DNA of 64,000 bases from positions 135,478 through 199,477 of the forward strand of contig DATLOC010000053.1 of NCBI GenBank assembly GCA_035536455.1. The letters are read 5' to 3'. The DNA comes from Thermoanaerobaculia bacterium. Its GTDB lineage: Bacteria; Acidobacteriota; Thermoanaerobaculia; Multivoradales; UBA5704. The notes beneath the pieces are model-generated. The model was not told the DNA's origin. It was given only the letters and a program-made list of their open reading frames with translations, and made no database searches. A program made the translations under genes and the position numbers. Positions 9,719 through 60,463 of this stretch are shown here, piece after piece. Position 1 is the stretch's first letter. Each line of letters begins with the position of its first letter.

Positions 9719-9817
9719 CTCCGAGGAGCGGCTAGTCGACTGCTGGCTGCTGGAACGCCCAGAAAGCTAGCCGGGCTTCATCAACTTGTCAAGCACAGGA
9801 TCTTCCTTGTTGACGGG

Positions 9818-11431
9818 TCATTGACAGGCGAACGCCTCGATGTCCTGCACCGGGAGGTACGCCTTCCCCTGCGGGTTGAAGTAGCGCCGCGTGCGCCCGG
9901 TCTGGGTGTCGGTGACGATGACCAGCACCTCGACGTCGGTCAAGCCGCTGGCGAAGAACCAGTAGTGGTCGTTGACGGCGCAGCCTTCGAGCACCTTGAC
10001 GACCAGCTCGGTGTTGTCCTCGTTGAAGAACCAGAAGCGGCCGGAGTCGGCGGTGTCCGCGACGGCGAAGCCGTGGCCGCCGACGCCGCCGGTCTTCCAG
10101 AGCGCCTCGACCTTGAAGCGTCCGCCCTGCAGGCAGAGGTTGGCGATGCCGGGGACGCAGGGGCCGCTCGCGGCGAGCGGCCCGAGCTGGCTGAAGAAGA
10201 CCAGGTCCCCGAGCGCCCGCCCGGTCTGCAAACCGACCTGGTTGTCGTACTGCCAGTGGATGCCGCCGTAGATGCGGCTCTGCCCCGCTTCGTTGGCCGC
10301 CTGCGAGAAGCTGGTGAACGAGCGCGTGACGCCCGGCAGGCCGTCGGAGCCGTCGTCGAAGGAGAAGTTGTCGGTGCCGAAGAACTGCCCGAGGACGCGC
10401 GCGGCCGCGCCGCTGAAGGTGCTGTGCCCGGAGGTGTAGGCCGGGAAGGGTGGCGTGACGATCAGCGGCGTCCAGGCGGGGTCGGCGACGGTGTTCGGGT
10501 TGCCGTCCTTGTCGGCGTTGGGGATGCCGGTGAAGGGCCGCCAGTGGTTGTAGGCGTACTTGTGGTCCCAGGAGACGATCGCCGCGTCGGCCTCGGCGAT
10601 GCTCAGCAGCGCCAGCAGGCGCGACTTCTCGAGCAGCGACAGCCCCTCCTCCTCGGCGATGTGCTGGGCGATCACCAGCCAGTGCCCGGGCGGAGTGGCC
10701 GTGCCCGCGCCATCGGCCCAGAAGAGGGCGATCTGGGTCTGCTCGGGGGTGCGCGTGCTGCCGGTGGCCCGGCCCAGGCGCTTCACCTCGTTGAAGGCGA
10801 TCGTGTACTGGACGCTGGTGAGCGAGGGCGGCGGCCCCGCCCGGAGCTGCGAGCCGGTCTGCAGCGCCCAGGGGGTGACCAGCGGCCACTGCGGCAGCAG
10901 TCCGGCGGCGAAGGCGGGACCGGTCGGGATCCACCAGTTGGCGCCGTCGATGGTGTTGTAGGCGACGACCCGGTCGTGGCCGTCGTCGACGCGCAGGGCG
11001 AGGATCTGGTCGGCCACGTCCTGCCCCCAAGCGACGCCGATGGCCGCCGCGTTGCCGTCGGCGATGGTCGCCAGCGAGGCCGCGAGGGCGGCGTCGAAGG
11101 TCGCCTGCTGCGCCGGGAAGAGCGCCGAGAGCGCGCGGTGCGCCGCGGCGGCCGCCGCGGCCTCCGGCGAGGCGCCGGCCGGGGCGTCGTCGGTGACGTG
11201 GTACGGCGAGTAGCCGCCGAGGATCCCGACCAGGGCGTCGAAGATCGAGACGTGGACGATCGCCATGGCGCGGCTGGCGCGCGGCGGCGGCGTCTTGTCG
11301 GTGCGGACGGCGTCGAGCAGCTCCTCGTTCCAGTCCGACACGACGTCGGCGCGGGCGGCGCCGGCGGCGCCGAGCAGCCCGGCGCACAGCATGAGGACGA
11401 ACAGCTTCCGAGACATGACGGCCTCCTTCAA
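9818..11431 (-). CDS. secreted PAP2-superfamily / vanadium-dependent haloperoxidase-like protein
   Basis: Signal peptide. PAP2 motifs K-x6-RP (KYAYNHWRP), SGH (YTSGHSTF) and SR-x5-H-x3-D (SRIYGGIHWQYD). Confidence 0.75.
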   Translation of the reverse strand: MKEAVMSRKLFVLMLCAGLLGAAGAARADVVSDWNEELLDAVRTDKTPPPRASRAMAIVHVSIFDALVGILGGYSPYHVTDDAPAGASPEAAAAAAAHRALSALFPAQQATFDAALAASLATIADGNAAAIGVAWGQDVADQILALRVDDGHDRVVAYNTIDGANWWIPTGPAFAAGLLPQWPLVTPWALQTGSQLRAGPPPSLTSVQYTIAFNEVKRLGRATGSTRTPEQTQIALFWADGAGTATPPGHWLVIAQHIAEEEGLSLLEKSRLLALLSIAEADAAIVSWDHKYAYNHWRPFTGIPNADKDGNPNTVADPAWTPLIVTPPFPAYTSGHSTFSGAAARVLGQFFGTDNFSFDDGSDGLPGVTRSFTSFSQAANEAGQSRIYGGIHWQYDNQVGLQTGRALGDLVFFSQLGPLAASGPCVPGIANLCLQGGRFKVEALWKTGGVGGHGFAVADTADSGRFWFFNEDNTELVVKVLEGCAVNDHYWFFASGLTDVEVLVIVTDTQTGRTRRYFNPQGKAYLPVQDIEAFACQ

Positions 11432-17143: not shown

Positions 17144-19429
17144 GTGAAACGCATGAAAGCGGTTGGGATCAAGCAGCTGCAAGCCCTCGTCCTCGCTTGC
17201 GCCGCTTGGCTCGCCGTGGGCGCGGCACTCGCCGGCGCGGAGGAGGCGCTGGCCGCCGCCGAGGTGAGCGGCACCGCCGTCGGGCCCGGGGGCGAGCCGG
17301 CGGCGGGGGCGGTGGTCGCCGTCGTCGCCGCCCGGCGCAGCGAGCCGTCGGCGGTGGTGGTCGCCGGCGCCGGCGGGGCGTTCGCGGCGACGGTCCCCGC
17401 CGGCACCTACGCCCTGACCGCCACCCATCCGCAGTGGACGGCCGCCTGGTCGCCGCCGGCTGCCGTGAGCGGCAAGGTCGTTCGCGACCTGCGCCTCCTG
17501 GCGCCGGACGAGGGGGTCCTCCTCGAAGGCGACGTCCGCGACTCGACGGGGGCCGCCCTCGCCGGCGCGGAGGTGCACTGCATGCGCACCATCTCCAAGG
17601 GCGACCTCTTCGTCGGCCGCGCCGACGGCGCCGGGCGCTACGCGCTGCGCCTGCCGTCCTCGCCCTACTACGGCTGCCACGCGGCGGCCGACGGGCTGCG
17701 CTCGCCGCTTGTCGAGGTCGACGTCGACGTCGCCGCCGGAGCGGTACGGCGGGACCTGGTGATCCGCCGGCCGGCTCCCCCGCCGCAGGCAGTGGTGGAT
17801 TGGATCCGCGAGCAGGCGATCCCGCTGCTGACGACGCGCGCCGGGCACGGCTTCTCCGACCTGGCGCCCTTGCGCGACGTCGTCGGCGACGCCCGGGTGG
17901 TGGCCCTCGGCGAGGCCACCCACGGTACGCGCGAGTTCTTCCACCTCAAGCACCGCCTCTTCGAGTACCTCGTCGCCGAGCTCGGCTTCACCGTCTTCGC
18001 CATCGAGGCGAGCTGGCCGGAGTCCGAGGCGGTGGACGAGTACGTGCGGACGGGCCGGGGGAACCCCGCCGAGGCGCTCGCCGGGCTGTACATCTGGCCG
18101 TGGAACACCGAGGAGGTGCTCGACCTCATCCGCTGGATGCGGCAGTGGAACGCCGTGCCGGGGCACCGGCAGGTGCGCTTCTACGGCTTCGACGTCAAGG
18201 CCGCCGCGGTGGCGGCCGAGCGCCTGGCGGCGCGGCTCGGGCAGATCGATCCGGCGCTCGCGGCGGAGGCGGGGCCCGCCCTCGCCCGGCTCGCCGCGGC
18301 CGAGCGCGCCGCGCCCGAGCTCGCCGACGCCGACGAGGCGGAGTACCAGGCCGCCGTGGCCGGGGTGGCCGCGGTGCTGCCGCGGATCGCCGCGCGGCTG
18401 CCGCAGCCGGCGTCCGCCGCCGACCGGCAGGCGATCGTCGACCGGCACTACGTGCAGGTGCTCGAGCAGTACACGCGGCTGCGCGGCCCCGGGGGCGGCG
18501 GTCCGGTGCGCGACCGCGGCATGGCCGACAACGTGCGCTGGATCGCCGACGTCGCCGAGCCCGGGTCGCGCGTCGTCGTCTGGGCGCACAACTACCACGT
18601 CAACGTCTTCGCGGAGGGCTCGCTGCCCTGGATGGGCCACCACCTCGAGGCGGCGCTGGGTAAGGACTACCTGCCGGTGGGCTTCCTGTTCCACCACGGC
18701 TCGTTCCAGGCGATGGACCGCACCGGCGGCCCCCGCGGGCTCAAGGAGTTCACGGTCGGCCCACCCGCGGCAGGCACGCTCGAGGACACCTTCGAGCGCG
18801 CCGGCTGGCCGCTCTGCCTCCTCGACCTGCGCCGCCTGCCGGCGGAGGGCCCGGTCGCCGAGTGGCTCCGCGCCCCCCAGCTGTCGCGCGCCGTCGGCTC
18901 TTCTTTCAGCGGCGAAGCCGACATGGCGATGGAGCTGGTGCTGCCCGAGGTGTACGAGGCGGTGGTCTACGTCGAGGCGACGACGAGGGCCCGACCCAAC
19001 CCGCGGTGCAGCCGTAGGACGGGGCGGAGTTCACGTAGCGGGGCTCCGGGGGGTTCCCGGGAGGCGCGAGATGCGGAAGGAACGCTTGCGGATAAGGGAG
19101 CGCGACGTCCGGATAGATCCGCGAGCCGTCCGGATACATCCTCAGCGCGTCCGGATAGATCCGCGGGTCTTCCGGATCTATCCGCGGCGCTTCCGGATGG
19201 ATCTGCGGCGCTTCCGGATCTATCCGCGGGCGGTCCGGATACATCCTCGACGCTTCCGGATATATCCCCCGCGCTTCCGGATCTATCCGCCGCGCTTCCG
19301 GATACATCCGCAGGCCCTGGGGAGATGTCCGGAGGCCTCCCGGCGACCTCCGGAGAGGACGCGAAGAGGTCCTCGCCGCCGCCGGGCTCGTCACGCGGCG
19401 TCGTCAGCTTGCCCAGGAGGGTCCGATGA
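17144..19429 (+). CDS. secreted erythromycin-esterase-family (Ere) hydrolase with two N-terminal CarboxypepD_reg-like domains; the ORF continues in frame through tandem-repeat array A
   Basis: Signal peptide; LGEATHGTREFFHLKHRLFEYLV (Ere motif)...AVVYVEATTRARP; then a LPDLSAA-type heptad tail; stop in ATGA with the downstream ORF. Confidence 0.7.
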   Translation: MKRMKAVGIKQLQALVLACAAWLAVGAALAGAEEALAAAEVSGTAVGPGGEPAAGAVVAVVAARRSEPSAVVVAGAGGAFAATVPAGTYALTATHPQWTAAWSPPAAVSGKVVRDLRLLAPDEGVLLEGDVRDSTGAALAGAEVHCMRTISKGDLFVGRADGAGRYALRLPSSPYYGCHAAADGLRSPLVEVDVDVAAGAVRRDLVIRRPAPPPQAVVDWIREQAIPLLTTRAGHGFSDLAPLRDVVGDARVVALGEATHGTREFFHLKHRLFEYLVAELGFTVFAIEASWPESEAVDEYVRTGRGNPAEALAGLYIWPWNTEEVLDLIRWMRQWNAVPGHRQVRFYGFDVKAAAVAAERLAARLGQIDPALAAEAGPALARLAAAERAAPELADADEAEYQAAVAGVAAVLPRIAARLPQPASAADRQAIVDRHYVQVLEQYTRLRGPGGGGPVRDRGMADNVRWIADVAEPGSRVVVWAHNYHVNVFAEGSLPWMGHHLEAALGKDYLPVGFLFHHGSFQAMDRTGGPRGLKEFTVGPPAAGTLEDTFERAGWPLCLLDLRRLPAEGPVAEWLRAPQLSRAVGSSFSGEADMAMELVLPEVYEAVVYVEATTRARPNPRCSRRTGRSSRSGAPGGSREARDAEGTLADKGARRPDRSASRPDTSSARPDRSAGLPDLSAALPDGSAALPDLSAGGPDTSSTLPDISPALPDLSAALPDTSAGPGEMSGGLPATSGEDAKRSSPPPGSSRGVVSLPRRVR
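19083..19395. repeat. tandem array A: about 11 units of ~21 bp with consensus TCCGGAT-NN-ATCCGCGGCGCT (inverted-repeat core GGAT-NN-ATCC)
   Basis: Read directly: tccggatagatccgcgagccg / tccggatacatcctcagcgcg / tccggatctatccgcggcgct ... Paralogous to array B1. Confidence 0.85.
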
Positions 19430-21663: not shown

Positions 21664-21960
21664 CCGGATAAGGGAGCGCGACGTCCGGATCTATCCGCGA
21701 GCCGTCCGGATACATCCTCAGCGCGTCCGGATCGATCTGCGGGCCTTCCGGATCTATCCGCGGCGCTCCCGGATATCTCCCCAGGCGTTCCGGATACATC
21801 CTCGACGCTTCCGGATATGTCCCCCGCGCTTCCGGATACATCCTCAGGTGTTCCGGGCCTATCCTCAGGTCCTGGGGAGACGTCCGGAGGCCCTCCGGTG
21901 ACCCCGGAGAGGACACGCGGAGCTTCGGCGGCTGCCGGGTTCTCCTTTCGTTCGTTAGGG
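21664..21960. repeat. tandem array B1 (paralog of array A; TCCGGAT-NN-ATCC core, ~10 units)
   Basis: Same first unit ggataagggagcgcgacg and the same unit order as array A. Confidence 0.85.
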
Positions 21961-22019: not shown

Positions 22020-22300
22020 CGCCCAATGGCCTCCGGGAGGCGTGGAACGTCCTGCGGCGGCTTCGGAACCCTTTCCCGGAGCGTGGGAATGGATTGCGCG
22101 GGCCCGGGAACAGGTTGCGGAGCGCCGGGAATCCTTTCCGAGCGGCTCGGAATACGTTCCGCGGCGCGCGCAACTCGTTCCCGGCGTCGCGCAATCGATT
22201 CCCGGCACCGCGCAGGAGGTTCCGGAGGGCGCGCAGGAGGTTCCGAGGTCCCGGGAGGACATAGGGAGGCTCCACCGGGGCGTCTGAGGGTCGCACGGGG
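22020..22300. repeat. tandem array B2 (~12 units of ~21 bp, core GGAA-N4-TTCC)
   Basis: cggaaccctttcccggagcgt / gggaatcctttccgagcggct / cggaatacgttccgcggcgcg / caatcgattcccggcaccgcg ... Confidence 0.8.
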
Positions 22301-44828: not shown

Positions 44829-44891
44829 GGAGACTTACGAGTCAATTCGCCGTCGCGCGCACCTCGGTGGGCGGACGGCTCCGACTTTCCC

Positions 44892-45230
44892 TCAATCGCC
44901 GATGATCTGGTTGAGGCCGTCGAGGATGAGGGCGAGCTCTTCCGGCGATGCGCGGCCGAGCCGCCGGCTCAGGCGCTCGGTCGAGAGGGTGCGGATCTGC
45001 CCCGTCTTGATCCACGATCTCTTCGGCAACCGCGCCGACCTCAGCGCCACGGAGAGCGGGAACCCCGCCTTGGGCTCCTGGCCCGTGACCGCCAGCGCGA
45101 TGACCGTGCCGGATCGCTCGTTAAAGACTTCGTGGCTGAGCACGAGGACAGGGCGCTGGCCGGCCTGCTCGTGACCGCGGGCGGGGTCCAAGTCGGCCCA
45201 GAAGATGTCGCCTCTCAGTATTCGGGCCAC
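44892..45230 (-). CDS. MazF/PemK-family endoribonuclease toxin
   Basis: RGDIFWADLDPARGHEQAGQRPVLVLS. Confidence 0.75.
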   Translation of the reverse strand: MARILRGDIFWADLDPARGHEQAGQRPVLVLSHEVFNERSGTVIALAVTGQEPKAGFPLSVALRSARLPKRSWIKTGQIRTLSTERLSRRLGRASPEELALILDGLNQIIGD

Positions 45231-45454
45231 GCAGCCTCGCCGCTCAACCACTGCTCCGCCTCGGCGCGCTCGACCGCGGGCTCCAGCTTGGCGCACTCCT
45301 CGGCGAGGCTCACCCGCTTCAGCCGCTGCAGCTTCTCGCGGACGGCGTCCTGAATCAGCTTGCTGCGGCTGGCTCCCGCGCCCTGCTCGACGAGCTCGTC
45401 GAGCTCTTGGAGGTCGTTGGGGTCGATCGAGATGGCGATCTTGGCCGTAGGCAT
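45215..45454 (-). CDS. RHH/MazE-like antitoxin
   Basis: MPTAKIAISIDPNDLQELDELVEQG; overlaps the toxin start. Confidence 0.65.
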   Translation of the reverse strand: MPTAKIAISIDPNDLQELDELVEQGAGASRSKLIQDAVREKLQRLKRVSLAEECAKLEPAVERAEAEQWLSGEAAWPEY

Positions 45455-45629
45455 GAGATCATGGTATTCTCGCTGGTCGTACCAGTCAAGCATGCGTCAG
45501 CCTCCAAGGAGGTCGCTCGGTGACTCTCGAGGGCCGAGGCCAAGATTCCGACGAGTGGAAGCTGGAGTCCTATCGCCAGGGCTCGGATGCGTGCAGGAAC
45601 TACAGCGGCCTGACGATGAGAGTGCGGAC

Positions 45630-46130
45630 GCTGCGCAACAGGTCCTCGGCTTGAGCATCGCCGGTCTTGCCGCTACCTACCTGAAAGATGACTCCGGCAT
45701 CGATGGCACGCCAGATCGGGCGATCCTGGTTGGCGGCGGTCTGACCCTCGTCCTCCTTGCCATCTCGTTGGGCTTCGTCGACTGGCACTATCAATCCGCC
45801 TTTAGCGCTATCCGGGACTCGCTGGCGAGGGCGGAGGCGGAGCGCAGGATCGACGGGCCGTGGCGAGCTCACCTCTCGGTGCGCAGTCGGCTGGTAGACC
45901 ATTTCGCTTCGTACCTGCCGTTCGTTTTCCTCTTCGCCATCGGCTGCGTTGGCGCCTGCGTCGGCATGTTCGGCATTGGCATTGGATGGTGGCTGTCGGC
46001 TCCGCTGGTGGCCGCGGCGTTTGCCTTCTTCTTCTACCTCTCCTCCCGTGCCAAGAAACGGGACCGGAAGATGCAGGCCGAGATCGATGACATCGTCGCG
46101 CGATGCCCCGCGAGCGCGAGACCCGTATGA
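45630..46130 (+). CDS. hypothetical membrane protein (start uncertain)
   Basis: The C-terminal half of ORF 45360..46130 is hydrophobic (LPFVFLFAIGCVGACVGMFGIGIGWWL). Confidence 0.35.
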   Translation, partial: AAQQVLGLSIAGLAATYLKDDSGIDGTPDRAILVGGGLTLVLLAISLGFVDWHYQSAFSAIRDSLARAEAERRIDGPWRAHLSVRSRLVDHFASYLPFVFLFAIGCVGACVGMFGIGIGWWLSAPLVAAAFAFFFYLSSRAKKRDRKMQAEIDDIVARCPASARPV

Positions 46131-47071
46131 AGGTGGGGATCATCGGGGTCGGCAACGTCGGCACAGCGTGCGCGAAGGCGATGCTGCTGAGGGGGTCCTG
46201 CCTCGAGATCGTGCTTCTCGACACCGATGAAGCGCGCGCCAACGGAGTCGCGGCAGACCTGTCCCACGGTGAGTCGCTCTGTCCTCCGACGAAGATCCTG
46301 GCTGGCGGGTATCGGGATCTGACCCGTGCCGCCGTCGTCGTCATCACCGCTGGAATCAACGAGCGGACCGGAAAGGCGATCGATCGCGACGACAACCTCG
46401 GGCGGCTCCGCCTCCTGCCCCACAACGCCGCCATCTACAGCAAGATCGTGCCGCGTATCGCGCGCGTCGCCCCGCGGGCGCTCATCCTCGTCGTCACCGA
46501 TCCGCCGGACCCCCTCGCCGATGTCGCCCGCCGCTTCACCAAGAGCCCGGTACTCAGCTCGGGCACCTTCCTCGACACGCTCCGGTTCCGCCTACAGCTG
46601 GCGACGGAGCTCGGGTGCCACCCTTCCTCCGTGGACGCGCTCGTGGTCGGAGAGCACGGCACCTCACAGGTGTACGTCTGGTCCTCCGCGACGATAGGAG
46701 GCGAGCCCGTCCTCGAGCTCGCGAGAAGGAAGGGCTTGAACGTGGCGAGCTTCCGGGCGAAGGTCGAGCAAGAAGTGAAGTACGCCAACATCAAGATCAT
46801 TGAGGGAACGGGCGCCAGCCAACACGGCATTGGGATCGTGACGGCGAGGATCGTCGAGGCCATTCTCCGCGATGAGGGGCTGGTGGCGCCGATCGGTGTG
46901 CTCCAGCCGGAGTACGGTGTCACGCTCTCGCTTCCGGCGGTGATCGGGCGCGGGGGGGTGTCGAAGGTCCTGGCTCCCGCTCTCTCAGGCAAGGAGAGGC
47001 GGGCGCTGGCGGCGAGCGCTAAGGCGATCGCCGGGGCGCTAGACGGTCTTGCGGATGAACTCCGGCCCTAG
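46127..47071 (+). CDS. L-lactate/malate dehydrogenase family protein
   Basis: MKVGIIGVGNVGTACA (Rossmann); VVGEHGTSQ catalytic His. Confidence 0.8.
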   Translation: MKVGIIGVGNVGTACAKAMLLRGSCLEIVLLDTDEARANGVAADLSHGESLCPPTKILAGGYRDLTRAAVVVITAGINERTGKAIDRDDNLGRLRLLPHNAAIYSKIVPRIARVAPRALILVVTDPPDPLADVARRFTKSPVLSSGTFLDTLRFRLQLATELGCHPSSVDALVVGEHGTSQVYVWSSATIGGEPVLELARRKGLNVASFRAKVEQEVKYANIKIIEGTGASQHGIGIVTARIVEAILRDEGLVAPIGVLQPEYGVTLSLPAVIGRGGVSKVLAPALSGKERRALAASAKAIAGALDGLADELRP

Positions 47072-48169
47072 TGCCAAGGCCCCCACCGCCAGCCCCATCC
47101 CCACCCAGAACGGAATCCGCGGCACGACCCAGACCCGCGCTCTCAGCACCGGGCTCTCGTAGGGCTCGGGGTCGGGGCGGGGGCGCTTGGCGTTGATCTC
47201 GCTGCGTTGTGCCTCGGGCAGGCGGTGCTGCGCATGCGGTGGCTGGAAGGAGCGGAGGGCCAGGAACGGCGTGTAGTAGACCTCCAGGATCCGGTTCTCC
47301 TTCCAGGCGTGGAACCAGTCGCCGCGGTGGAAGCTGGTGTTGCGGTGCTCGACGTGCCAGCCGGCGGCGGTCAGATAGAAGTCCTCCTTCCCCAGCGGCG
47401 TCAGGCCGGCCGGCGGGTCGGCGGCCCAGGCGCGCGCCCGCTCGGCCTTGAGCTCAGCCAGCCGCTCGCGCGAGTGGAACGAGCGGAAGCGGCCGATCTC
47501 CAGGTCGGCGATCTCGTAGCCCAGGTGGGCGCGGTCGAAGAAGAGGGCGAAGGCAAGGAGTACCACGGCGGCGGTGCGGCCGACGCGCCGCGCCGCGGGC
47601 AGGTCGGGCCGCCAGCGGAAGCCACGCGGCGGCTCCAGCGCGACGCCGAAGAGCAGCCCGCACAGCCCGGCGTAGGCGTTGAGCGCCACGTCGCGCACGT
47701 CGCCGGTGCGCACCGGCGTCCACCACTGCACCGCCTCGTCGACGATCCCGACGAGCGCCACCGCCAGCACGGTCAGCGGCAGGACGGAGGCGTCGCCGTG
47801 GCGGCGGAAGGCGCGGTAGAAGAGCAGCCCCAGGGCGCCGTACTCCAGGAAGTGGATGCGCTCGACCGCGTCCACCTGGAGGTTGCCGGTGCCGAAGCCC
47901 ACGACCTGCACGCCCAGCAGCATCAGCGCCAGTGCCAGCCCGCCGAGCCGCAGCAGTCGCACCGGCCGGCGCGGCTCGCGGACGCGCAGCGCCGCCGCCA
48001 CGACCAGCCCCGCCACCACGACCGCGAAGCCGGCCGCCAGCGCCACGACGAAGCGGCGGCCGAAGAGTTCGAGGAGGAGGTCGCGCAGCGTCCCCATGAA
48101 CGGGGCGGTAGCGACGATGAAGAGGGCGAGGAGGAGCGGCGGGCGGAGGCTCGGGGAGCGCGTCACCAT
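47039..48169 (-). CDS. VanZ-like family membrane protein with a C-terminal extension
   Basis: DEAVQWWTPVRTGDVRDVALNAYAGLCG. Confidence 0.6.
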   Translation of the reverse strand: MVTRSPSLRPPLLLALFIVATAPFMGTLRDLLLELFGRRFVVALAAGFAVVVAGLVVAAALRVREPRRPVRLLRLGGLALALMLLGVQVVGFGTGNLQVDAVERIHFLEYGALGLLFYRAFRRHGDASVLPLTVLAVALVGIVDEAVQWWTPVRTGDVRDVALNAYAGLCGLLFGVALEPPRGFRWRPDLPAARRVGRTAAVVLLAFALFFDRAHLGYEIADLEIGRFRSFHSRERLAELKAERARAWAADPPAGLTPLGKEDFYLTAAGWHVEHRNTSFHRGDWFHAWKENRILEVYYTPFLALRSFQPPHAQHRLPEAQRSEINAKRPRPDPEPYESPVLRARVWVVPRIPFWVGMGLAVGALALGPEFIRKTV

Positions 48170-53510: not shown

Positions 53511-54365
53511 CTAGGGCGCGGGCGCCGGCGCGGCCGCCGGAGCGGCGGCCGGCTCGGCCGGGGCCGCCGGCGGGGCCGGCGGCTTGGGCGCGGCGCCGGC
53601 GAGCCAGGCCTGGTAGCCGGCGGCGTCGTGGACGGTGAAGAAGCCCTTCATCCGGTAGTGCGAGAGGCCGCAGAGCTGGGCGCAGGAGATCTCCCAGCAG
53701 TCCATCGTGGCGGCGCAGCCGGGCAGCGTCGCCTCCGGCGGGGTCACCGCCGTGGGGGTGAAGTGGACGGGGATCTCCATTCCCGGGATGGCGTCCTGCT
53801 TGACCCGCATGGTGGGGAGGAAGAAGCTGTGGATCACGTCCTTCGAGGAGAGGCGGATGTAGGCCGGGCGGTTGACCTCGAGGTGGAGCTGGTTGATCGT
53901 CGTGACGTCGTCGGCGGCCGCCGGGTCGTTGCGGTCGATCCCCAGCGGGTTGGTGCCGGTCGAGATGAGCTTGACGTCGGTGCGCCCGAAGCGGCCGTCG
54001 GCCCCGGGGTAGTGGATGTTCCAGGCGAACTGCTCCCCCACCACCCGCACCTCGATCGCCCGCTGCCGCTCCTCGGGGCTCAGCGCCGACACCCGCCGCG
54101 CCCACATCGGCACCGCGAAGCCGATCAGCAGAGCGATCTCGACCAGCGCCACCCCGACCTCGCCGTAGGTCGAGAAGTGCCCCTTGGCACCGGCGTAGCG
54201 CGCCGTCTGCTGCCGCCCGCCGCGGAAGCGGACCAGCGCCACCACGAAGTAGATGGACCAGCCGACGAAGAGGATGGCCATCACCCAGTGGACGAGGCCG
54301 GTCAGGAAGTCGAGCTCCCCGCCGTGCGCCGAGCCGTTGAACGGCAGGTTGAGATATCTCTCCAT
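53511..54365 (-). CDS. coxB: cytochrome c oxidase subunit II (CuA)
   Basis: VVGEQFAWNIHYP; DVIHSFFLPTMRVKQDAIPG; CuA site CWEISCAQLCGLSHYRM. Confidence 0.85.
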   Translation of the reverse strand: MERYLNLPFNGSAHGGELDFLTGLVHWVMAILFVGWSIYFVVALVRFRGGRQQTARYAGAKGHFSTYGEVGVALVEIALLIGFAVPMWARRVSALSPEERQRAIEVRVVGEQFAWNIHYPGADGRFGRTDVKLISTGTNPLGIDRNDPAAADDVTTINQLHLEVNRPAYIRLSSKDVIHSFFLPTMRVKQDAIPGMEIPVHFTPTAVTPPEATLPGCAATMDCWEISCAQLCGLSHYRMKGFFTVHDAAGYQAWLAGAAPKPPAPPAAPAEPAAAPAAAPAPAP

Positions 54366-54578
54366 CTAGGCTTTCCCCCCTTTGAGCAGGCGCAGCCGGG
54401 TGGCCGGCCGGGAGACCCGTTTCGAGCGCTGCCAGAAGTCCCAGAAGAGCTTGCCGAACCCGACCCACATCAGCGCCACGATGCCGAGCAGGAAGAGGAT
54501 GGCGTTGTTCATGCCGCCCACGATCGGCGCGTCGGCGGCGCCGAAGCAGGTGGCGCAGGCGGCGGCCCAGCCGGTCAC
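54366..54578 (-). CDS. small membrane protein with CxxC (70 aa)
   Basis: MTGWAAACATCFGAADAPIVGGMNNAILFLLGIVALMWVGFG; tightly packed between cox genes. Confidence 0.45.
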   Translation of the reverse strand: MTGWAAACATCFGAADAPIVGGMNNAILFLLGIVALMWVGFGKLFWDFWQRSKRVSRPATRLRLLKGGKA

Positions 54579-54579
54579 C

Positions 54580-54798
54580 TCACTCCTCCTCCGGCGCGAT
54601 GCGGCGGAGCTTGTCGCGCACCCGCAGGCCGTAGACCGCGAGCACCGCGGCGACGGCGAAGAAGACGAGCCCCATCCCCAGCTCCGTGCCGGCGCCCGAG
54701 GCGCGCCAGGCGCCGATCCCCCACACCCCCACCCACGCCGAGAGCAGCACCGAGGCGGCGATGAAGAAGAGGTGGAAGGTGCGCAGGGAGAGCGGCAT
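54580..54798 (-). CDS. small two-TM membrane protein (72 aa)
   Basis: MPLSLRTFHLFFIAASVLLSAWVGVWGIGAW... Confidence 0.45.
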   Translation of the reverse strand: MPLSLRTFHLFFIAASVLLSAWVGVWGIGAWRASGAGTELGMGLVFFAVAAVLAVYGLRVRDKLRRIAPEEE

Positions 54799-54804
54799 CG
54801 CGCG

Positions 54805-55122
54805 CTAGCCCGTCCCCTGCCGGATGCCGATGGTGTCCCCTTCGGTGCCCAAGGGAATCAACATCAGGGCGATGAAGAAGACCACCGTCAGCGCCAGCAG
54901 CCAGTAGATCACCCGTCGTTCGTCGAGCAGATGCATGAAGTAGCCGGCCACCAAGGACCCCTTGACGACCGCGATGAGCAAAGCCACCGCAACCGTCATG
55001 CCCGGGCCGAGCTGCAGTCGGCTCGCCGCCACCGTCACCACCGTCAGCACCGCCAGCGCCGCGAAGACCAGCACGTAGGTGCGGGTCTGCCGCCGGATCG
55101 CCTCCACGTCGTGTCCGCTCAT
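54805..55122 (-). CDS. cytochrome c oxidase subunit IV (bacterial aa3/caa3 CtaF-like)
   Basis: TRTYVLVFAALAVLTVVTVAASRL...VAGYFMHLL. Confidence 0.6.
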   Translation of the reverse strand: MSGHDVEAIRRQTRTYVLVFAALAVLTVVTVAASRLQLGPGMTVAVALLIAVVKGSLVAGYFMHLLDERRVIYWLLALTVVFFIALMLIPLGTEGDTIGIRQGTG

Positions 55123-55140
55123 CGTGCCTCCGTCCCTCCG

Positions 55141-55731
55141 TCAGAGCAGGTACAGCGTCGGGAACAGGAAGATCCACACCAGGTCCACGAAGTGCCAGTA
55201 CAGGCCGGCCACCTCGATGCGGTTGGCGAAGCGCTCGGGGTCGCGCTTCCAGAGCTTCGCGCCGGGGCCCCAGAAGTAGCCGTTGACGATCATCCCGCCG
55301 AGCACGTGCAGGCCGTGCAGGCCGGTCAACGTGAAGTAGATGGCGAGGAAGGTATTGGTCGACGGGTAGAGATGGTGCTCGAACTTGGTGCCGTACTCGA
55401 CGGCCTTGACGATCATGAAGCCGAACCCGGCGAGGATCGTCAGCCCCATGTAGAGCCGGTACTTCTTGAAGTCGCCGAGCTTGAGCGAGGCCCACGACAT
55501 GACCATCGTCACCGACGAGCCGATGAGGATGAGCGTGTTGAGGGTGGCGAGCCAGACGTTCAGGTACTCCGAGCCGTGCGGCCAGCTCGCGGCGCCGGTG
55601 CGCAGCAGCACGTAGGAGGAGAAGAGGGCGCCGAAGAGCATCACCTCGGAGGCCAGGAAGAGCCAGATTCCGAGCTTGGCGTTGTAGAGGCCGGTGTCCG
55701 GCCGCGGCTCGACGGTGTAGGGGATCTGCAT
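55141..55731 (-). CDS. coxC: cytochrome c oxidase subunit III
   Basis: GIWLFLASEVMLFGALFSSY...HGLHVLGGMI...YWHFVDLVWIFLF. Confidence 0.85.
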   Translation of the reverse strand: MQIPYTVEPRPDTGLYNAKLGIWLFLASEVMLFGALFSSYVLLRTGAASWPHGSEYLNVWLATLNTLILIGSSVTMVMSWASLKLGDFKKYRLYMGLTILAGFGFMIVKAVEYGTKFEHHLYPSTNTFLAIYFTLTGLHGLHVLGGMIVNGYFWGPGAKLWKRDPERFANRIEVAGLYWHFVDLVWIFLFPTLYLL

Positions 55732-55734
55732 GGC

Positions 55735-57516
55735 TCAGGCCGCCTCTTCGTCGGCGTGGCCGTTCTGCGTCAGGTAGGCGGCGGGCGCCTCCGGGACGCT
55801 GTACTCGTAGGGGCCGCGCACCACCGTCGGCACGTGCGCGAAGTTGCCGTGCGGGATCGGCGGCGAGGGGGCGGCGGCCCACTCCAGGGTCGTCGCCTCC
55901 CAGTGGTTGTCGGCCACGCGCTTGCCCTTCGCCATGCTCCAGAAGAAGTTGATGATGAAGGGGATCTGCGCCAGGCCCAGGCACCAGGCCGAGACCGACA
56001 TCACCTCGTTGAGCCAAAGCACGTCCTGGGCGTGGGCGTACTGCTGGCCGCCGTCGTAGAGGCGGCGCGAGACCCCGGCCAGACCCTGCCAGAACATCGG
56101 CATGAAGACGCCGTTGATGAACAGGAACGAGGGCCAGAAGTGGATCTTCCCCAGCAGCTCGTTCATCTTCTTGCCGGTCACCTTCGGGAACCAATAGTAG
56201 ATGCCGGCGAACATGGCGAAGATCGTCCCCGGCGCCACCACGTAGTGGAAGTGGCCGATGACGTAGTAGGTGTCGTGGAGGTGGATGTCGGCGGCGGCGA
56301 GCCCGAGCGGCAGCCCGGTGAGGCCGCCGATGCCGAACATCGGCAGGAAGGCGAGGGCGAAGAGCATCGGCGTGTTGAAGCGGATCGAGCCCCCCCAGAG
56401 CGACAGGAAGAGGGCCGAGAGGATGATCACCGAGGGGATCGAGATGATCATCGTCGTGGTCTGGAAGAAGGTCGAGATCGCCGTCCCCATGCCGGTCAGA
56501 AACATGTGGTGGGACCAGACGATGAACGACATGAAGCCGACGAAGATCAGCGAGTAGACCATCGAGCGGTAGCCGTAGAGGGGCTTCCGCGTGTTGTTGG
56601 TGATGACCTCGGCGACGATGCCGAAGGCGGGGAGGATGAGGACGTAGACCTCGGGGTGGGCGAGGAACCAGAAGAGGTGCTGCCAGAGCAGCGGGCTGCC
56701 GCCCCCGGCGACCTCGAGGGCCTTGCCCGAGATGACCAGCCCCTCCGGCAGGAAGAAGCTGGTGCCGGCGACGCGGTCCAAGAACTGGAGGATCGCCGCC
56801 GCCTGCAGGGCCGGGAAGGCGAGCAGCAGCAGGAACGAGGTCACGAACTGGGCCCAGACGAAGAACGGCAGCCGGAACCAGGTGAGCCCCGGAGCGCGGA
56901 GCTGGATGATGGTGACCAGGAAGTTGGTGGCGCCGAGCAGCGAGGAGAAGATCAGGAAGAGCATGCCGACCAGCCACCAGGTCTGGCCGGCGGTGGCGAT
57001 GTTGGAGAGCGGCGGGTAGGAGGTCCAGCCCGAGTTGGCGGCCCCGCCCGGCGCGAAGAAGCTCGCCAGCATGACCACCCCGCCCACGAAGTAGAACCAG
57101 TAGCTCGCCATGTTGAGCTTGGGGAAGGCCATATCGGGGGCGCCGATCTGCAGCGGCACGACGTAGTTGCCGAAGGCGCCGACGGCGAGCGGCACGATCC
57201 CCAGGAAGACCATGATCGTGCCGTGCATGGCCCCGAGCTGGTTGTAGAACTCGGGGAGCATGATGCCGCCGGTGGCCTGGCCCTCGCCGAGCAGCCCGCC
57301 GATCAGCGGCAGCGGCTTGCCTGGGTAGGCGAGCTGCCAGCGCATCATCATCATCAGGGTGAAGCCGAAGAGCAGGAAGGCGAGGGCGGTGAAGCCGTAC
57401 TGAATGCCGATCACCTTGTGGTCCTGCGAGAAGACGTACTTGCGCCAGAAGCCCGGCTCGTCGTGGTGGGCGGCGTCGTGCGCGTGCCCGCCCCGTTCCT
57501 CGACCAGTGCACTCAT
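55735..57516 (-). CDS. coxA: cytochrome c oxidase subunit I
   Basis: Start MSALVEERGG; 12 TM helices; conserved His ligands (WAHHMF, HFHYV). Track ORF 55735..57648 is over-extended. Confidence 0.85.
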   Translation of the reverse strand: MSALVEERGGHAHDAAHHDEPGFWRKYVFSQDHKVIGIQYGFTALAFLLFGFTLMMMMRWQLAYPGKPLPLIGGLLGEGQATGGIMLPEFYNQLGAMHGTIMVFLGIVPLAVGAFGNYVVPLQIGAPDMAFPKLNMASYWFYFVGGVVMLASFFAPGGAANSGWTSYPPLSNIATAGQTWWLVGMLFLIFSSLLGATNFLVTIIQLRAPGLTWFRLPFFVWAQFVTSFLLLLAFPALQAAAILQFLDRVAGTSFFLPEGLVISGKALEVAGGGSPLLWQHLFWFLAHPEVYVLILPAFGIVAEVITNNTRKPLYGYRSMVYSLIFVGFMSFIVWSHHMFLTGMGTAISTFFQTTTMIISIPSVIILSALFLSLWGGSIRFNTPMLFALAFLPMFGIGGLTGLPLGLAAADIHLHDTYYVIGHFHYVVAPGTIFAMFAGIYYWFPKVTGKKMNELLGKIHFWPSFLFINGVFMPMFWQGLAGVSRRLYDGGQQYAHAQDVLWLNEVMSVSAWCLGLAQIPFIINFFWSMAKGKRVADNHWEATTLEWAAAPSPPIPHGNFAHVPTVVRGPYEYSVPEAPAAYLTQNGHADEEAA

Positions 57517-57649
57517 GCGGCCTTCTCCTCTTGGGGTGCCTCGAAAACCGGCGGGAGTGTATGGGAGGCGCGGAGGGCTGGGCAAGCGGGGCGGGCGGAG
57601 TCGGAAAGGGGCCGTCGAGAGGCTGCGCGATGCCAAAACGGCGCGCAAA

Positions 57650-57890
57650 TCGCTCCGGTACGGAGATGGAAGCGCCGGTACCGTAATGGACGCGCCGTTA
57701 CGGTACCGGGCGCCCCGTTACCGTACCGGGCGCCCCGTCACCATACCGGGCGCCCCGTTACCGTACCGGGCGCTCCGTTACCGTAATGGAAGCTCCGTTA
57801 CCGTACCGGACGGACCGTTACCGTAACGGACGCTCCGTCACCATACCGGACGCGCCGTGTCCATAACGGACGCGGCGGTGCGTTCGCGGC
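57650..57890. repeat. tandem array C (~10 units of 20 bp; CGTTACCGTACCGGGCGCCC-like; cores GTTAC-C-GTAAC / GGTACC)
   Basis: cgttacggtaccgggcgccc / cgttaccgtaccgggcgccc / cgtcaccataccgggcgccc / cgttaccgtaacggacgctc ...; divergent promoter region between coxA and a plus-strand membrane gene. Confidence 0.85.
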
Positions 57891-57932
57891 TGGTGTAGGC
57901 TCGACCTCGCCGCGCTAACAGGGAGATCCGCC

Positions 57933-58667
57933 ATGTCCGAAGGCACCGGGAGGTCGGTCCTGTGGTGGCTGTGCCTGTTCTTCGCGCCGCTGGTCCTGCT
58001 GGTCATCGAGCTGTTCCACCCCGCGGGGTTCACCAAGGACCCCGGGATGTTCGCGTACCTCTCCCAGCCCGAAGCCCACAGCCCGCAGCACGGGGCGCTG
58101 GCCTACTTCGGGCCACGGTGGTGGTTCACGCTGCACATGATCCAGACGTTGCTGATGGGGCTGGTGGCGGTTGGGCTCTGGCTCTTGGTCGACGGCTTCG
58201 GGCCCAGCGACCGGCGGCCGGCCGGGATCCTCGCCTGGCTCTCCCGCGTCGCGGCATTCGTCTTCCTCATTTACTACACGGCGCTCGACTCGATCGGCGG
58301 CAGCGGTCTGGGGCGCACCATCGAGCACACGCTGGCGATGAACCTGCCGCCCGACCAGCTCGCGGCGGTGGCGGCGGTCCTCGACGCCACCTGGACCGAC
58401 CCCTGGGTCGGCGGCGTGGGCTCCTTCATCAGCGAGACCGGCTCCTGGGCGGTCTTCATCGCGGCGCTGGCCGCCGCCGGGGCCTTGTTCGCGGCGAAGA
58501 AGGCGCCCTGGCCGCCGCTCGTCCTGCTCGTCGCCTTCGGCTGGGAGCTGCAGGTCAGCCACGCCGCCCCGCACGGGCCGATCGCCTTCGCCCTGCTGCT
58601 GGTCGCGGCGTTCTGGCTCTGGTGGGTGTGGCGGCGGCGGCCAGCGGGCCGTATGCTGGACGCCTAG
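57933..58667 (+). CDS. hypothetical polytopic membrane protein
   Basis: MSEGTGRSVLWWLCLFFAPLVLLVIELF... has multiple TM helices. Confidence 0.55.
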   Translation: MSEGTGRSVLWWLCLFFAPLVLLVIELFHPAGFTKDPGMFAYLSQPEAHSPQHGALAYFGPRWWFTLHMIQTLLMGLVAVGLWLLVDGFGPSDRRPAGILAWLSRVAAFVFLIYYTALDSIGGSGLGRTIEHTLAMNLPPDQLAAVAAVLDATWTDPWVGGVGSFISETGSWAVFIAALAAAGALFAAKKAPWPPLVLLVAFGWELQVSHAAPHGPIAFALLLVAAFWLWWVWRRRPAGRMLDA

Positions 58668-60006: not shown

Positions 60007-60357
60007 TCAGAGGCGCAAAACAACCACAACGAGAACCGCGACAATGCTAAGCAAGACCATGCAGCCAGTATCGCCTCTTGAGGGCGATGGCAAAGAGGTT
60101 CTCACCCGCTTTGACCCTGAACTGGACGGGGAAATGGATGCAGATGAAGACCTGCTGTCTGTAGCGCCACCCCTAAGAAAATCAGGGTTGTTTTGTGCTG
60201 CGGTTTTCTTGGAGGGTCGGATCCTCCCAGGGTCGCCCTGTTCAGCCAGGATATTGACTGTTTTACAGCGCCGACACCGCCACACATCACCGATCTTCGC
60301 AGTGCGCGGCCAATGAATCGTCTTACCGCAACGGCACGTGTGTGTCATATGTGGCAT
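60007..60357 (-). CDS. tail-anchored zinc-ribbon membrane protein (C-x-C...C-x2-C, Ser-rich linker, C-terminal TM)
   Basis: GGAGA RBS; MPHMTHTCRCGKTIHWPRTAKIGDVWRCRRCKTV...CMVLLSIVAVLVVVVLRL. An antisense plus-strand ORF 59942..60316 is the alternative. Confidence 0.45.
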   Translation of the reverse strand: MPHMTHTCRCGKTIHWPRTAKIGDVWRCRRCKTVNILAEQGDPGRIRPSKKTAAQNNPDFLRGGATDSRSSSASISPSSSGSKRVRTSLPSPSRGDTGCMVLLSIVAVLVVVVLRL

Positions 60358-60463
60358 CTGGTAAGGTCTCCTTCCCGACCAAGAAACCGCCTGCAGGGCC
60401 TGAACCACTATTGCACGACTTGCCGCAACATCGGTCGGCGCATTCGACAGTTGACTGCCGTGG

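Follow-up and report, generated by a model that had tools for sequence, protein, structure and literature searches.

The cytochrome c oxidase operon of an uncultured Thermoanaerobaculia bacterium (Acidobacteriota; GTDB lineage UBA5704), represented by a metagenome-assembled genome, is preceded by a tandem array of short palindromic repeats, termed array C, which occupies most of the 416-bp gap between the coxA gene and the divergently oriented open reading frame (ORF) of a 244-aa membrane protein. This arrangement raises the question of whether the array is a control region of the oxidase operon, a docking platform for a protein or a repeat without any function. The array was analyzed in a stretch of 64,000 nucleotides with a GC content of 71.9% (contig DATLOC010000053.1 of assembly GCA_035536455.1, positions 135,478 to 199,477), referred to as the window, and in the corresponding DNA of related genomes, whose contigs are designated by L numbers. 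Array C is a non-coding, DNA-level minisatellite with strict phasing. Our preferred reading, to which we would give rather less than an even chance, is that this lineage-specific palindromic minisatellite may serve as a multi-site docking platform for a predicted dimeric protein. The coordinates of all features are collected in Table 1.

Structure of the array upstream of coxA

An earlier note on this DNA had described a tandem array of palindrome-bearing 20-bp units in the divergent gap between coxA on the minus strand and a membrane protein gene on the plus strand, and this description was borne out for the repeat as well as for the flanking genes. The Tandem Repeats Finder (TRF) program reported a repeat at positions 57668-57874 with a period of 20, 10.4 copies, 82% matches, 0% indels and a score of 211, and a listing of the units in register from position 57655 yielded 11 head-to-tail 20-bp units. 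The typical unit reads CCGTTAC-C-GTACCGG-GCGCC; the unit CGTTACCGTACCGGGCGCCC of the earlier note is the same repeat offset by one base, and the variants quoted there as well as the cores GTTAC-C-GTAAC and GGTACC are present in the array. The first unit, CCGGTAC-G-GAGATGG, is a hybrid of two half-site types, C and C', that are distinguished below.

The 15-mer CCGTTACCGTAACGG matched 17 times in the window with <=3 mismatches, and every match was located within array C, as compared with a mean of 0.86 matches in dinucleotide shuffles, none of 100 of which reached 17. Since the Logan contig L001, an independent assembly, is identical to the window across array C and orthologous arrays are found in five other assemblies, the array is not an assembly artefact. 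According to blastn synteny, homology restarts in every relative at window position 57920, 13 bp ahead of the ATG of the membrane protein gene, and the left synteny breakpoint is located at ~57586-57594. Array C combines head-to-tail non-coding repeats, as detected by TRF, with an orthologous locus and unit turnover, the properties of a minisatellite, and belongs to the class of bacterial intergenic palindromic repeat arrays or minisatellites. In the literature we found no account of such arrays and nothing on tandem repeats in Thermoanaerobaculia.

Two half-site types at the orthologous locus

The coxA regions of relatives were recovered via exact-protein look-ups, and about 8-10 kb of cox DNA entered each comparison with the window. 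Six genomes of a single Thermoanaerobaculia species complex have the array as an old, orthologous locus, and the prospect raised in the earlier note that it might be restricted to this assembly does not hold, since relatives share it. With decreasing identity to the window, L177 (96.3%) carries a C'-type array of ~9 units, L166 (95.7%) a C-type array of 11 units, L083 (= L167; 94.3%) a C'-type array of ~9 units, L176 (92.3%) a C-type array of 10-11 units and L168 (85.8%) ~2 degenerate C'-like units, whereas L169 (85.0%) has no array at the orthologous position. Across these related genomes and the window, the unit counts are thus 11, 11 and 10-11 for type C, 9 and 9 for type C' and ~2 in L168.

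The C-type arrays of the window, L166 and L176 have the first unit and the coxA-side flank …CCAAAACGGCGCGCAAATCGCT in common. The C'-type arrays of L177 and L083/L167 show the same 20-bp period and architecture, with the unit CCAKCTC-C-GAGMTGG-GCGCY. The half-sites CCGKTAC (C) and CCAKCTC (C') differ at three positions, each of which is mirrored in the other arm. In every genome the first unit is the hybrid (C/G)CGG(T/G)AC-G-GAGATGG, its left arm corresponding to the C half-site and its right arm to the C' half-site, and the commonest right arm of the C units, GTACCGG, is the exact complement of the left arm of this hybrid. Moreover, the L166 array retains a perfect C' unit at its distal edge. 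These patterns are the mark of concerted evolution of the locus, in which the edge units stay ancestral and the interior units are replaced. They suggest that one half of an ancestral unit was palindromised to give rise to each type and that amplification then followed.

Array type and flank similarity are incongruent, as the closest relative, L177, carries type C' and the most distant of the four, L176, carries type C; both types are found in strains that are ~98% identical in coxA/coxC. Alleles may have been exchanged by recombination, or the dimorphism may be old, a soft conclusion as recombination within the cox genes could blur the ordering. Eighty GTDB coxA loci (CoxA identity <=78%) and 80 JGI metagenome loci (<=83%), together 1.76 Mb, were surveyed. 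No 20/21-bp array was detected upstream of coxA in these loci, and almost no comparable arrays were present in the 1.76 Mb at all, so that the arrays are confined to a narrow lineage.

Constraint on the half-sites and a possible docking platform

A comparison of C-type arrays in register indicated that the arms change less than the centre and the spacer. Substitutions affected 29/154 arm positions and 24/66 centre and spacer positions between the window and L166 (p=0.009), 16/140 and 20/60 between the window and L176 (p=5e-4), and 22/140 and 22/60 between L166 and L176 (p=0.0016). The outer CCG/CGG positions are particularly stable, with 2/60 changes between the window and L176 as compared with 34/140 in the rest of the unit (p=2e-4). 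The same contrast was observed between array A, a second array of the window, and its orthologue in L170 (core 4/118, non-core 21/76, p=1e-6), and it was absent from the C'-type arrays of L177 and L083 (arms 18/126, centre and spacer 5/54, p=0.47). The pattern of conserved half-sites with free centre and spacer that is expected of operators is accordingly found in C- and A-type arrays, not in C'.

The docking-platform reading is derived from the slower change of the arms, especially of the outer CCG/CGG positions, from the symmetry of the half-sites and from a period of two helical turns. The strict register, the orthology of the locus with its common flank and first unit, the mirrored half-site changes, the rare 7-bp dyads and the similar unit numbers within each type also speak for it. 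Each unit would represent a putative docking site for a dyad-symmetric, dimeric DNA-binding protein, and several dimers might assemble cooperatively on the array into one complex, along roughly one DNA face. The effect on coxA and on the divergent rightward genes would then be modulatory, the array acting as an upstream operator or as an architectural element.

Several observations weigh against such a platform. In register, the window and L166 arrays (11 vs 11 units, no indels) differ at 24% of positions, above the rates at four-fold degenerate sites (4.6-9.1%) and in the non-array flank (~17%); high divergence without indels points to turnover at the level of units instead of point decay. 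The C' arrays diverge by ~13% without arm constraint, and part of the contrast between arms and spacers could stem from the turnover of units whose differences lie mostly in the spacers. The window and L083 deviate by ~26 bp in the distance from the array to the -35 element of coxA, the same cox operon is found in relatives whose array is moved away, shortened or lacking, and sister arrays are located between convergent genes. Furthermore, no candidate for the binding protein is encoded nearby, and each core occurs in its own array only, without isolated sites in ~170 kb of lineage DNA, so that every array would need a protein of its own.

The strongest rival explanation, a realistic if doubtful one, is a functionless, neutral or selfish palindromic minisatellite. 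A half-site would have been palindromised by template switching, and replication slippage or unequal crossing-over would have amplified the palindrome in an intergenic region that is long and permissive; the array would persist as nothing removes it and then decay, its symmetry and phasing being by-products of the mutational mechanism. Both unit types can indeed be derived from the halves of the hybrid first unit, super-periods of 40 and 63 bp are typical of block duplication, and the divergence of the array is at or above the neutral rate. The C' arrays fit this explanation, as arm constraint is missing and broken units are kept at orthologous positions, and so do the loss or reduction of the array in L169 and L168 beside an unchanged cox operon, the occurrence of arrays in any intergenic context and the failure to find a cognate protein or dispersed sites. 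However, the stronger conservation of arms than of spacers, seen in the C- and A-type arrays and in the information profile described below, is not what uniform neutral decay predicts. Also against this explanation are the near absence of within-unit indels despite many substitutions, the similar unit numbers across genomes and the presence in one lineage of several independent arrays that all have a period of 20-21 bp, none being found in the coxA neighbourhoods of other taxa.

Sister arrays and strain-variable DNA

The window also holds three 21-bp arrays that were detected by TRF, namely A (19108-19311), B (21684-21869) and B2 (22077-22253). The first two are the further arrays named in the earlier note, and its proposal of a set of arrays in which each locus has its own core was substantiated, as four 20/21-bp arrays with locus-specific cores are present in 64 kb as compared with essentially none in the 1.76 Mb of coxA neighbourhoods from other taxa. 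Perfect 7-bp dyads like those of the C, C' and B2 consensus units arise in ~1% of shuffles, and the dyads of the A unit (5-bp arms, p ~0.16) and of the L169 unit described below (4-bp arms, p ~0.4) are not individually significant. An information profile of 28 units from A, B and L170 assigned 1.4-2.0 bits to the positions of TCCGGAT-nn-ATCC-n-C and 0.2-1.0 bits elsewhere. In A and B the whole element of ~250 bp is duplicated and not the repeats alone: both arrays open with GGATAAGGGAGCGCGACG and close with a hairpin-capable flank GTCCGGAGGCC…CCTCCGGAGAGGAC (19312-19362 and 21870-21905) with the stem TCCGGAGG/CCTCCGGA.

The neighbourhood of the rhomboid gene was compared in two relatives, L170 (same genome as L166) and L171. 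In L170 a single A-type array (21 bp × 10.6) directly adjoins the rhomboid stop codon, with an esterase gene on its other side, and lies between convergent genes. L171 lacks arrays A and B as well as the esterase and tyrosinase genes and retains only a 3-unit B2 remnant between the rhomboid gene and a convergent ParE toxin gene. L169 contains a different 21-bp × 12.9 array together with an inverted 42-bp repeat in a co-directional gap of 1.25 kb. The arrays are therefore a feature of the lineage that is not tied to promoters, and the view of the earlier note that they reside in regulatory DNA was not supported, the A-type array of L170 and the B2-type array of L171 being located between convergent genes.

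With respect to L169, the array at 5455-5926 has the unit GCCTCGGAGTGAGGTGACGCG and is followed by the 42-bp repeats with the reverse-complement motif ACTCCGAGGC. The two arrays are mutually inverted and could pair if transcribed, and a hairpin CCUC-GGAGU-GAGG, whose loop contains GGA, could arise from the unit. At window positions 19000-19020, just before the erythromycin-esterase stop codon, a 1-bp deletion was noted (CCGCGGTG vs CCGCCGGTG at ~11040-11060 in L170), which is either a frameshift or a sequencing error. Owing to this deletion the window ORF 17144-19429 extends by ~140 codons through array A, whereas the L170 stop codon precedes the array; gene callers may thus annotate array A as protein.

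Strain-variable DNA adjoins each of the three array loci. Seven genomes show five gene contents on the right side of array C: no gene in the window, a UPF0175/DUF3368 toxin-antitoxin pair in L083, HTH_37 and CytoC_RC genes in L166, the series 317aa-BrnT-HTH_37-CytoC_RC in L177 and a CytoC_RC remnant in L176. Both in the window and in L176, the edge of array C is where a deletion ends. Arrays A and B, as co-linear direct repeats with common flanks, bracket a 3.26-kb segment of the window.

In L176 the remnant at 5290-5640, between the array and the membrane protein gene, derives from a CytoC_RC-type cytochrome c gene in which the heme motif CxxCH is still readable; the deletion that took its 5' part ends at the array edge.

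These associations have a documented precedent in the Neisseria intergenic mosaic elements (NIME), arrays of 20-bp dRS3 inverted repeats (PMC1797815), and a recombination-promoting array of this kind would be both a marker and a driver of events in which neighbouring gene cassettes are exchanged, inserted or deleted. Such a role is unlikely, although the bordering of variable DNA at all three loci, the deletions that end at the edge of array C, the A and B direct repeats around an insertion missing from L170 and the incongruence of array type with 8-kb flank identity, which would imply allelic exchange, are in its favour. No recombinase, integrase or transposase is encoded near any array, the insertion point in L166 is located 66 bp outside the array and the insertion has no repeat ends. 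Toxin-antitoxin-rich variable islets are also common in intergenic gaps without repeats, so that the association, which rests on a small sample of three loci, may be coincidental. More elaborate, and rather improbable, is an undescribed NIME- or integron-like system for cassette exchange or insulation, in which contiguous 20/21-bp dyad arrays, each with its own half-site specificity, would be bound by putative cognate dimers or a recombinase and would delimit gene cassettes, the C/C' dimorphism representing a specificity switch that is maintained and exchanged between strains.

A candidate coxA promoter outside the array

An alignment of the coxA-proximal DNA of five genomes revealed a single conserved block, CTTGCCC…(18 nt)…TACACTCCC, located 45-75 nt ahead of the ATG, from which a sigma70-like core promoter was deduced (Table 1). 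The block is kept in all five, including relatives without an adjacent array, and the DNA upstream of ~57586-57594 is variable between genomes. A consensus promoter and terminator scanner gave no matches in the region 57400-58000; the block agrees with the consensus at 8/12 positions, which is under the cut-off of the scanner, and its assignment as coxA promoter is accordingly drawn from conservation. Array C is located ~70 bp upstream of the -35 element, at roughly -106 to -325 from the start site that is predicted near position 57549 of the minus strand. In L166 a 1.9-kb segment is inserted at the variable boundary beside the coxA -35 element, and the C-type array has been moved 2 kb from coxA.

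The claim of the earlier note that the array forms part of the regulatory DNA of the cox promoter was thus not upheld, as the conserved block TTGCCC-N18-TACACT lies outside the array and the same cox operon is accompanied by an array 2 kb away in L166, by ~2 units in L168 and by none in L169. Since the promoter is outside the array, the array is displaced, reduced or absent and the spacing is variable, array C is not the core promoter and not obligatory for cox control; judged from these comparisons it is dispensable for the cox operon. The fixed position and the retention with the regulated operon that characterize an operator were not found for array C.

A dedicated cox operator or enhancer, a specific control region by which a regulator switches the cytochrome oxidase operon, is accordingly very improbable, even though the position and orientation upstream of the coxA promoter are kept in the window, L176, L177, L083 and L167 and the dyad units are phased by two helical turns. 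In addition to the promoter block outside the array, the whole gene between array and -35 element in L166 and the variable spacing, it would have to accommodate the ~2 units of L168, the lack of an array beside the same operon in L169 and all more distant taxa, and two half-site types in strains that hardly differ in coxA/coxC.

The insertion in L166 (8037-9930) lies directly upstream of the coxA -35 element and has a lower GC content. As it has no terminal repeats and contains a 536-aa ORF with weak BNR/sortilin-like matches only, an insertion-sequence-like origin was rejected. In the C' haplotype a hairpin GCGCGCC-AAAAA-GGCGCG is present on the coxA side of the array (L083:8825-8851, L177 ~5895-5925, L168 ~6575-6600); CTTTTGG follows on the coxA strand, so that the hairpin could be a weak terminator and insulate coxA from upstream transcription. 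Its counterpart in the C haplotype is degenerate.

Folding of the array and rejected identities

The symmetry of the units was examined for traces of base pairing. One-sided variants of the arms are mostly uncompensated: the pair 4/12 is mismatched in 15 of 22 units, and the pair 5/11 is T.G in four units and C.A in four. The symmetry is therefore a property of the half-site consensus and not of base pairing. A constraint on hairpins or cruciforms was rejected, as within-unit compensation is lacking and pairing of neighbouring units is no better when assessed by eye. An RNA or hairpin element, be it a structured 5' leader, a small RNA, a protein sponge or cruciform DNA, is hardly credible: both strands of array C fold far better than shuffles (z = -6.8 and -5.8) and the L169 unit could form the hairpin mentioned above, but the 1-nt centre cannot make a hairpin loop, the predicted fold shows neither a regular hairpin per unit nor a strand preference, compensatory changes are missing and the array is upstream of the candidate coxA promoter. 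A search of the whole window against Rfam yielded no match at gathering scores, which argues against a known structured RNA family, and a permissive Rfam scan returned only microRNA-model noise of 19-29 bits vs cut-offs of 70-168 bits.

Additional identities were considered and discarded. The array is not a coding repeat, as a period of 20 is not a multiple of 3 and the ORF through array A is due to the 1-bp deletion. It is not a CRISPR array, given a whole period of 20 bp, a semi-conserved spacer of 5 nt and no cas domains among the window proteins. By eye, the coxA promoter contains no GG-N10-GC element of the kind required for a sigma54 enhancer; pairs of -35 and -10 elements of the extracytoplasmic function (ECF) type formed from adjacent units would have the wrong spacing of 14 nt; and a CsrA-type sponge was rejected as the window and L166 do not have the GGA of the unit in common. 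A phage or plasmid origin was discarded as well: viral scans produced four isolated chance matches, none of them with an array, and no match for the A core, and there were no plasmid matches. An iteron or partition centromere is contradicted by the neighbours, which are cox genes, a membrane protein and an ankyrin protein, and by the lack of par or rep domains among the window proteins. No copies outside the arrays were detected in ~170 kb of lineage DNA and no Y1_Tnp domain among the window proteins, and neither the window nor the DNA beside the arrays in relatives encodes a candidate for a binding protein or recombinase.

Comparison with known repeat systems

Among known systems, the NIME of Neisseria resemble the arrays as lineage-restricted, intergenic ~20-bp palindromic arrays that are syntenic yet strain-variable, lie beside variable genes and, putatively in the present case, at recombination end-points and have hypothetical protein partners (PMC1797815). 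In NIME the dRS3 units are 50-150-bp RS elements apart, and a single motif, ATTCCC-N8-GGGAAT, is used genome-wide in hundreds of copies (PMC1797815). In contrast, the present units are contiguous with 5-nt spacers, each locus has its own core, and neither dispersed copies nor RS-type inter-unit elements were seen.

The tandem 20-bp operators of GlpR and the paired ARG boxes of ArgR are tandem operators that are bound cooperatively by dimers. Tandem operator or centromere arrays bound in this way also include parC/ParR, the heptad arrays of the omega protein and sopC (PMC5016525). Array C shares with them the head-to-tail short sites, the dyad or direct symmetry and the helical phasing, and in these systems many sites form one cooperative nucleoprotein complex, often upstream of an operon. 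Their binding-protein gene is adjacent and they usually comprise 2-10 sites overlapping a promoter, whereas array C has no par, rep or regulator gene nearby, is located upstream of the core promoter and is dispensable in relatives.

The repetitive extragenic palindromes (REPs), including BIME, REPIN and SMAG-type elements, are likewise extragenic palindromes that can form head-to-tail clusters and occur in any intergenic context, including between convergent genes (PMC3733652, PMC3116915, PMC2613905). They are stem-loops of 20-40 nt with a GTAG or CGTC tag, tens to hundreds of dispersed copies and RAYT transposases (PMC3733652, PMC3116915, PMC2613905). Array C differs in its 1-nt centres, in the lack of dispersal in the DNA examined and of a RAYT gene in the window, and in the tag, as no conserved GTAG head is present and CGTC occurs only in variant units; a classical REP or BIME was therefore rejected.

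The mycobacterial interspersed repetitive units (MIRUs) measure 40-100 bp and lack palindromic symmetry; small ORFs are often present in them, and their copy number is frequently polymorphic. Like MIRUs and other variable-number tandem repeats, the arrays are intergenic tandem repeats at orthologous loci with gain, loss and conversion of units; unlike them, they consist of operator-like palindromes and hardly vary in unit number within a type. Unusual features are the dimorphism, which preserves the symmetry, and the 20/21-bp grammar throughout the lineage.

If the units are docking sites, the two half-site types and the displaced, reduced and absent arrays would form a natural series beside an otherwise identical cox operon, a series in which the origin, the changes in specificity and the decay of multi-site nucleoprotein platforms could be studied. 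Arrays that promote recombination would add a second, independent case of the NIME principle, from an uncultured and distant phylum. In the neutral case, a half-site that is palindromised and then amplified at a period of two helical turns would represent a mutational route that can mimic operator arrays, and caution would be advised in motif-based regulon prediction in high-GC metagenome-assembled genomes. Under no reading does array C redefine cytochrome oxidase regulation.

Genes and variable regions of the window

Table 1. Positions of array C, its sister arrays and the associated features in the window.
Feature	Position	Strand	Description
coxA (cytochrome c oxidase subunit I)	55735-57516	-	Pfam COX1, E=1.9e-137; CoxA = HVF61218.1; conserved synteny
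Inferred coxA core promoter	57556-57585	-	-35 TTGCCC at 57580-57585, 18-nt spacer, -10 TACACT at 57556-57561; sigma70-like
coxA-side flank of array C	57589-57654	.	Moves with the array as part of the C haplotype; common to L166 and L176; diverged in the C' haplotype
Array C	57655-57874	.	7-1-7 imperfect palindrome CCGKTAC-C-GTAMCGG and 5-nt GC-rich spacer RCGCN; TRF, register listing, motif enrichment
Degenerate tail and junction of array C	57875-57919	.	Only in the window; blastn synteny
244-aa membrane protein	57933-58667	+	HVF61219.1; no Pfam match; rightward neighbour of the array in the window only
Element A	19088-19362	+	Left flank GGATAAGGGAGCGCGACG, ten 21-bp units TCCGGAT-nn-ATCC-n-C with spacer (19108-19317), right-flank hairpin TCCGGAGG/CCTCCGGA; orthologous to the single L170 array
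Element B	21664-21905	+	Co-linear paralogue of element A with the same flanks and orientation, ~9 units; inside the segment missing from L170
Array B2	22077-22253	.	~8 units of 21 bp, CGGAAT-n-ATTCCG-type core
Segment absent from L170	19382-22645	.	3.26 kb; hydrolase fragment, low-GC3 (GC content at third codon positions) tyrosinase gene, arrays B and B2; blastn, Pfam, GC3 filter

The genes of the cox operon are arranged in the order coxA, COX3, COX4_pro, two small ORFs and, in last position, COX2, both in the window (53511-57516) and in all relatives. The two conserved small ORFs specify products of 72 and 70 aa without Pfam match. Downstream of COX2, a conserved 243-aa protein without Pfam match is followed by a set of ECF sigma factor, FecR and TonB-receptor genes. 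The NCBI annotation labels subunit I as 'cbb3-type', whereas the COX3, COX4 and COX2 subunits encoded with it point to an aa3-type (A-family) oxidase.

Further strain-variable regions were noted. The window segment 59196-60806, 1.6 kb in length, is missing from L166, L082, L085 and L176; in these relatives the SCO1 region or other genes directly adjoin the ankyrin gene. The segment has a GC content of 47-60% vs 72% in the window, no Rfam match and no convincing genes except for a 133-aa zinc-ribbon-like ORF on the minus strand (60007-60408) with a weak SprT-ribbon match, and it is probably foreign DNA. Between the RND pump and rhomboid genes, L170 carries a 5.2-kb insertion (4589-9836, between window positions 23516 and 23476) that is not in the window. 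This insertion encodes a TIR-nSTAND protein, a WD40 protein and a MazE/PIN toxin-antitoxin pair, with trypsin/NACHT/AAA genes downstream, and looks like a defence island. Finally, the window region 44832-47078, which is missing from L166, represents a strain-variable islet with a MazF/PemK toxin gene (44892-45296) and a lactate/malate dehydrogenase gene (46103-47071).

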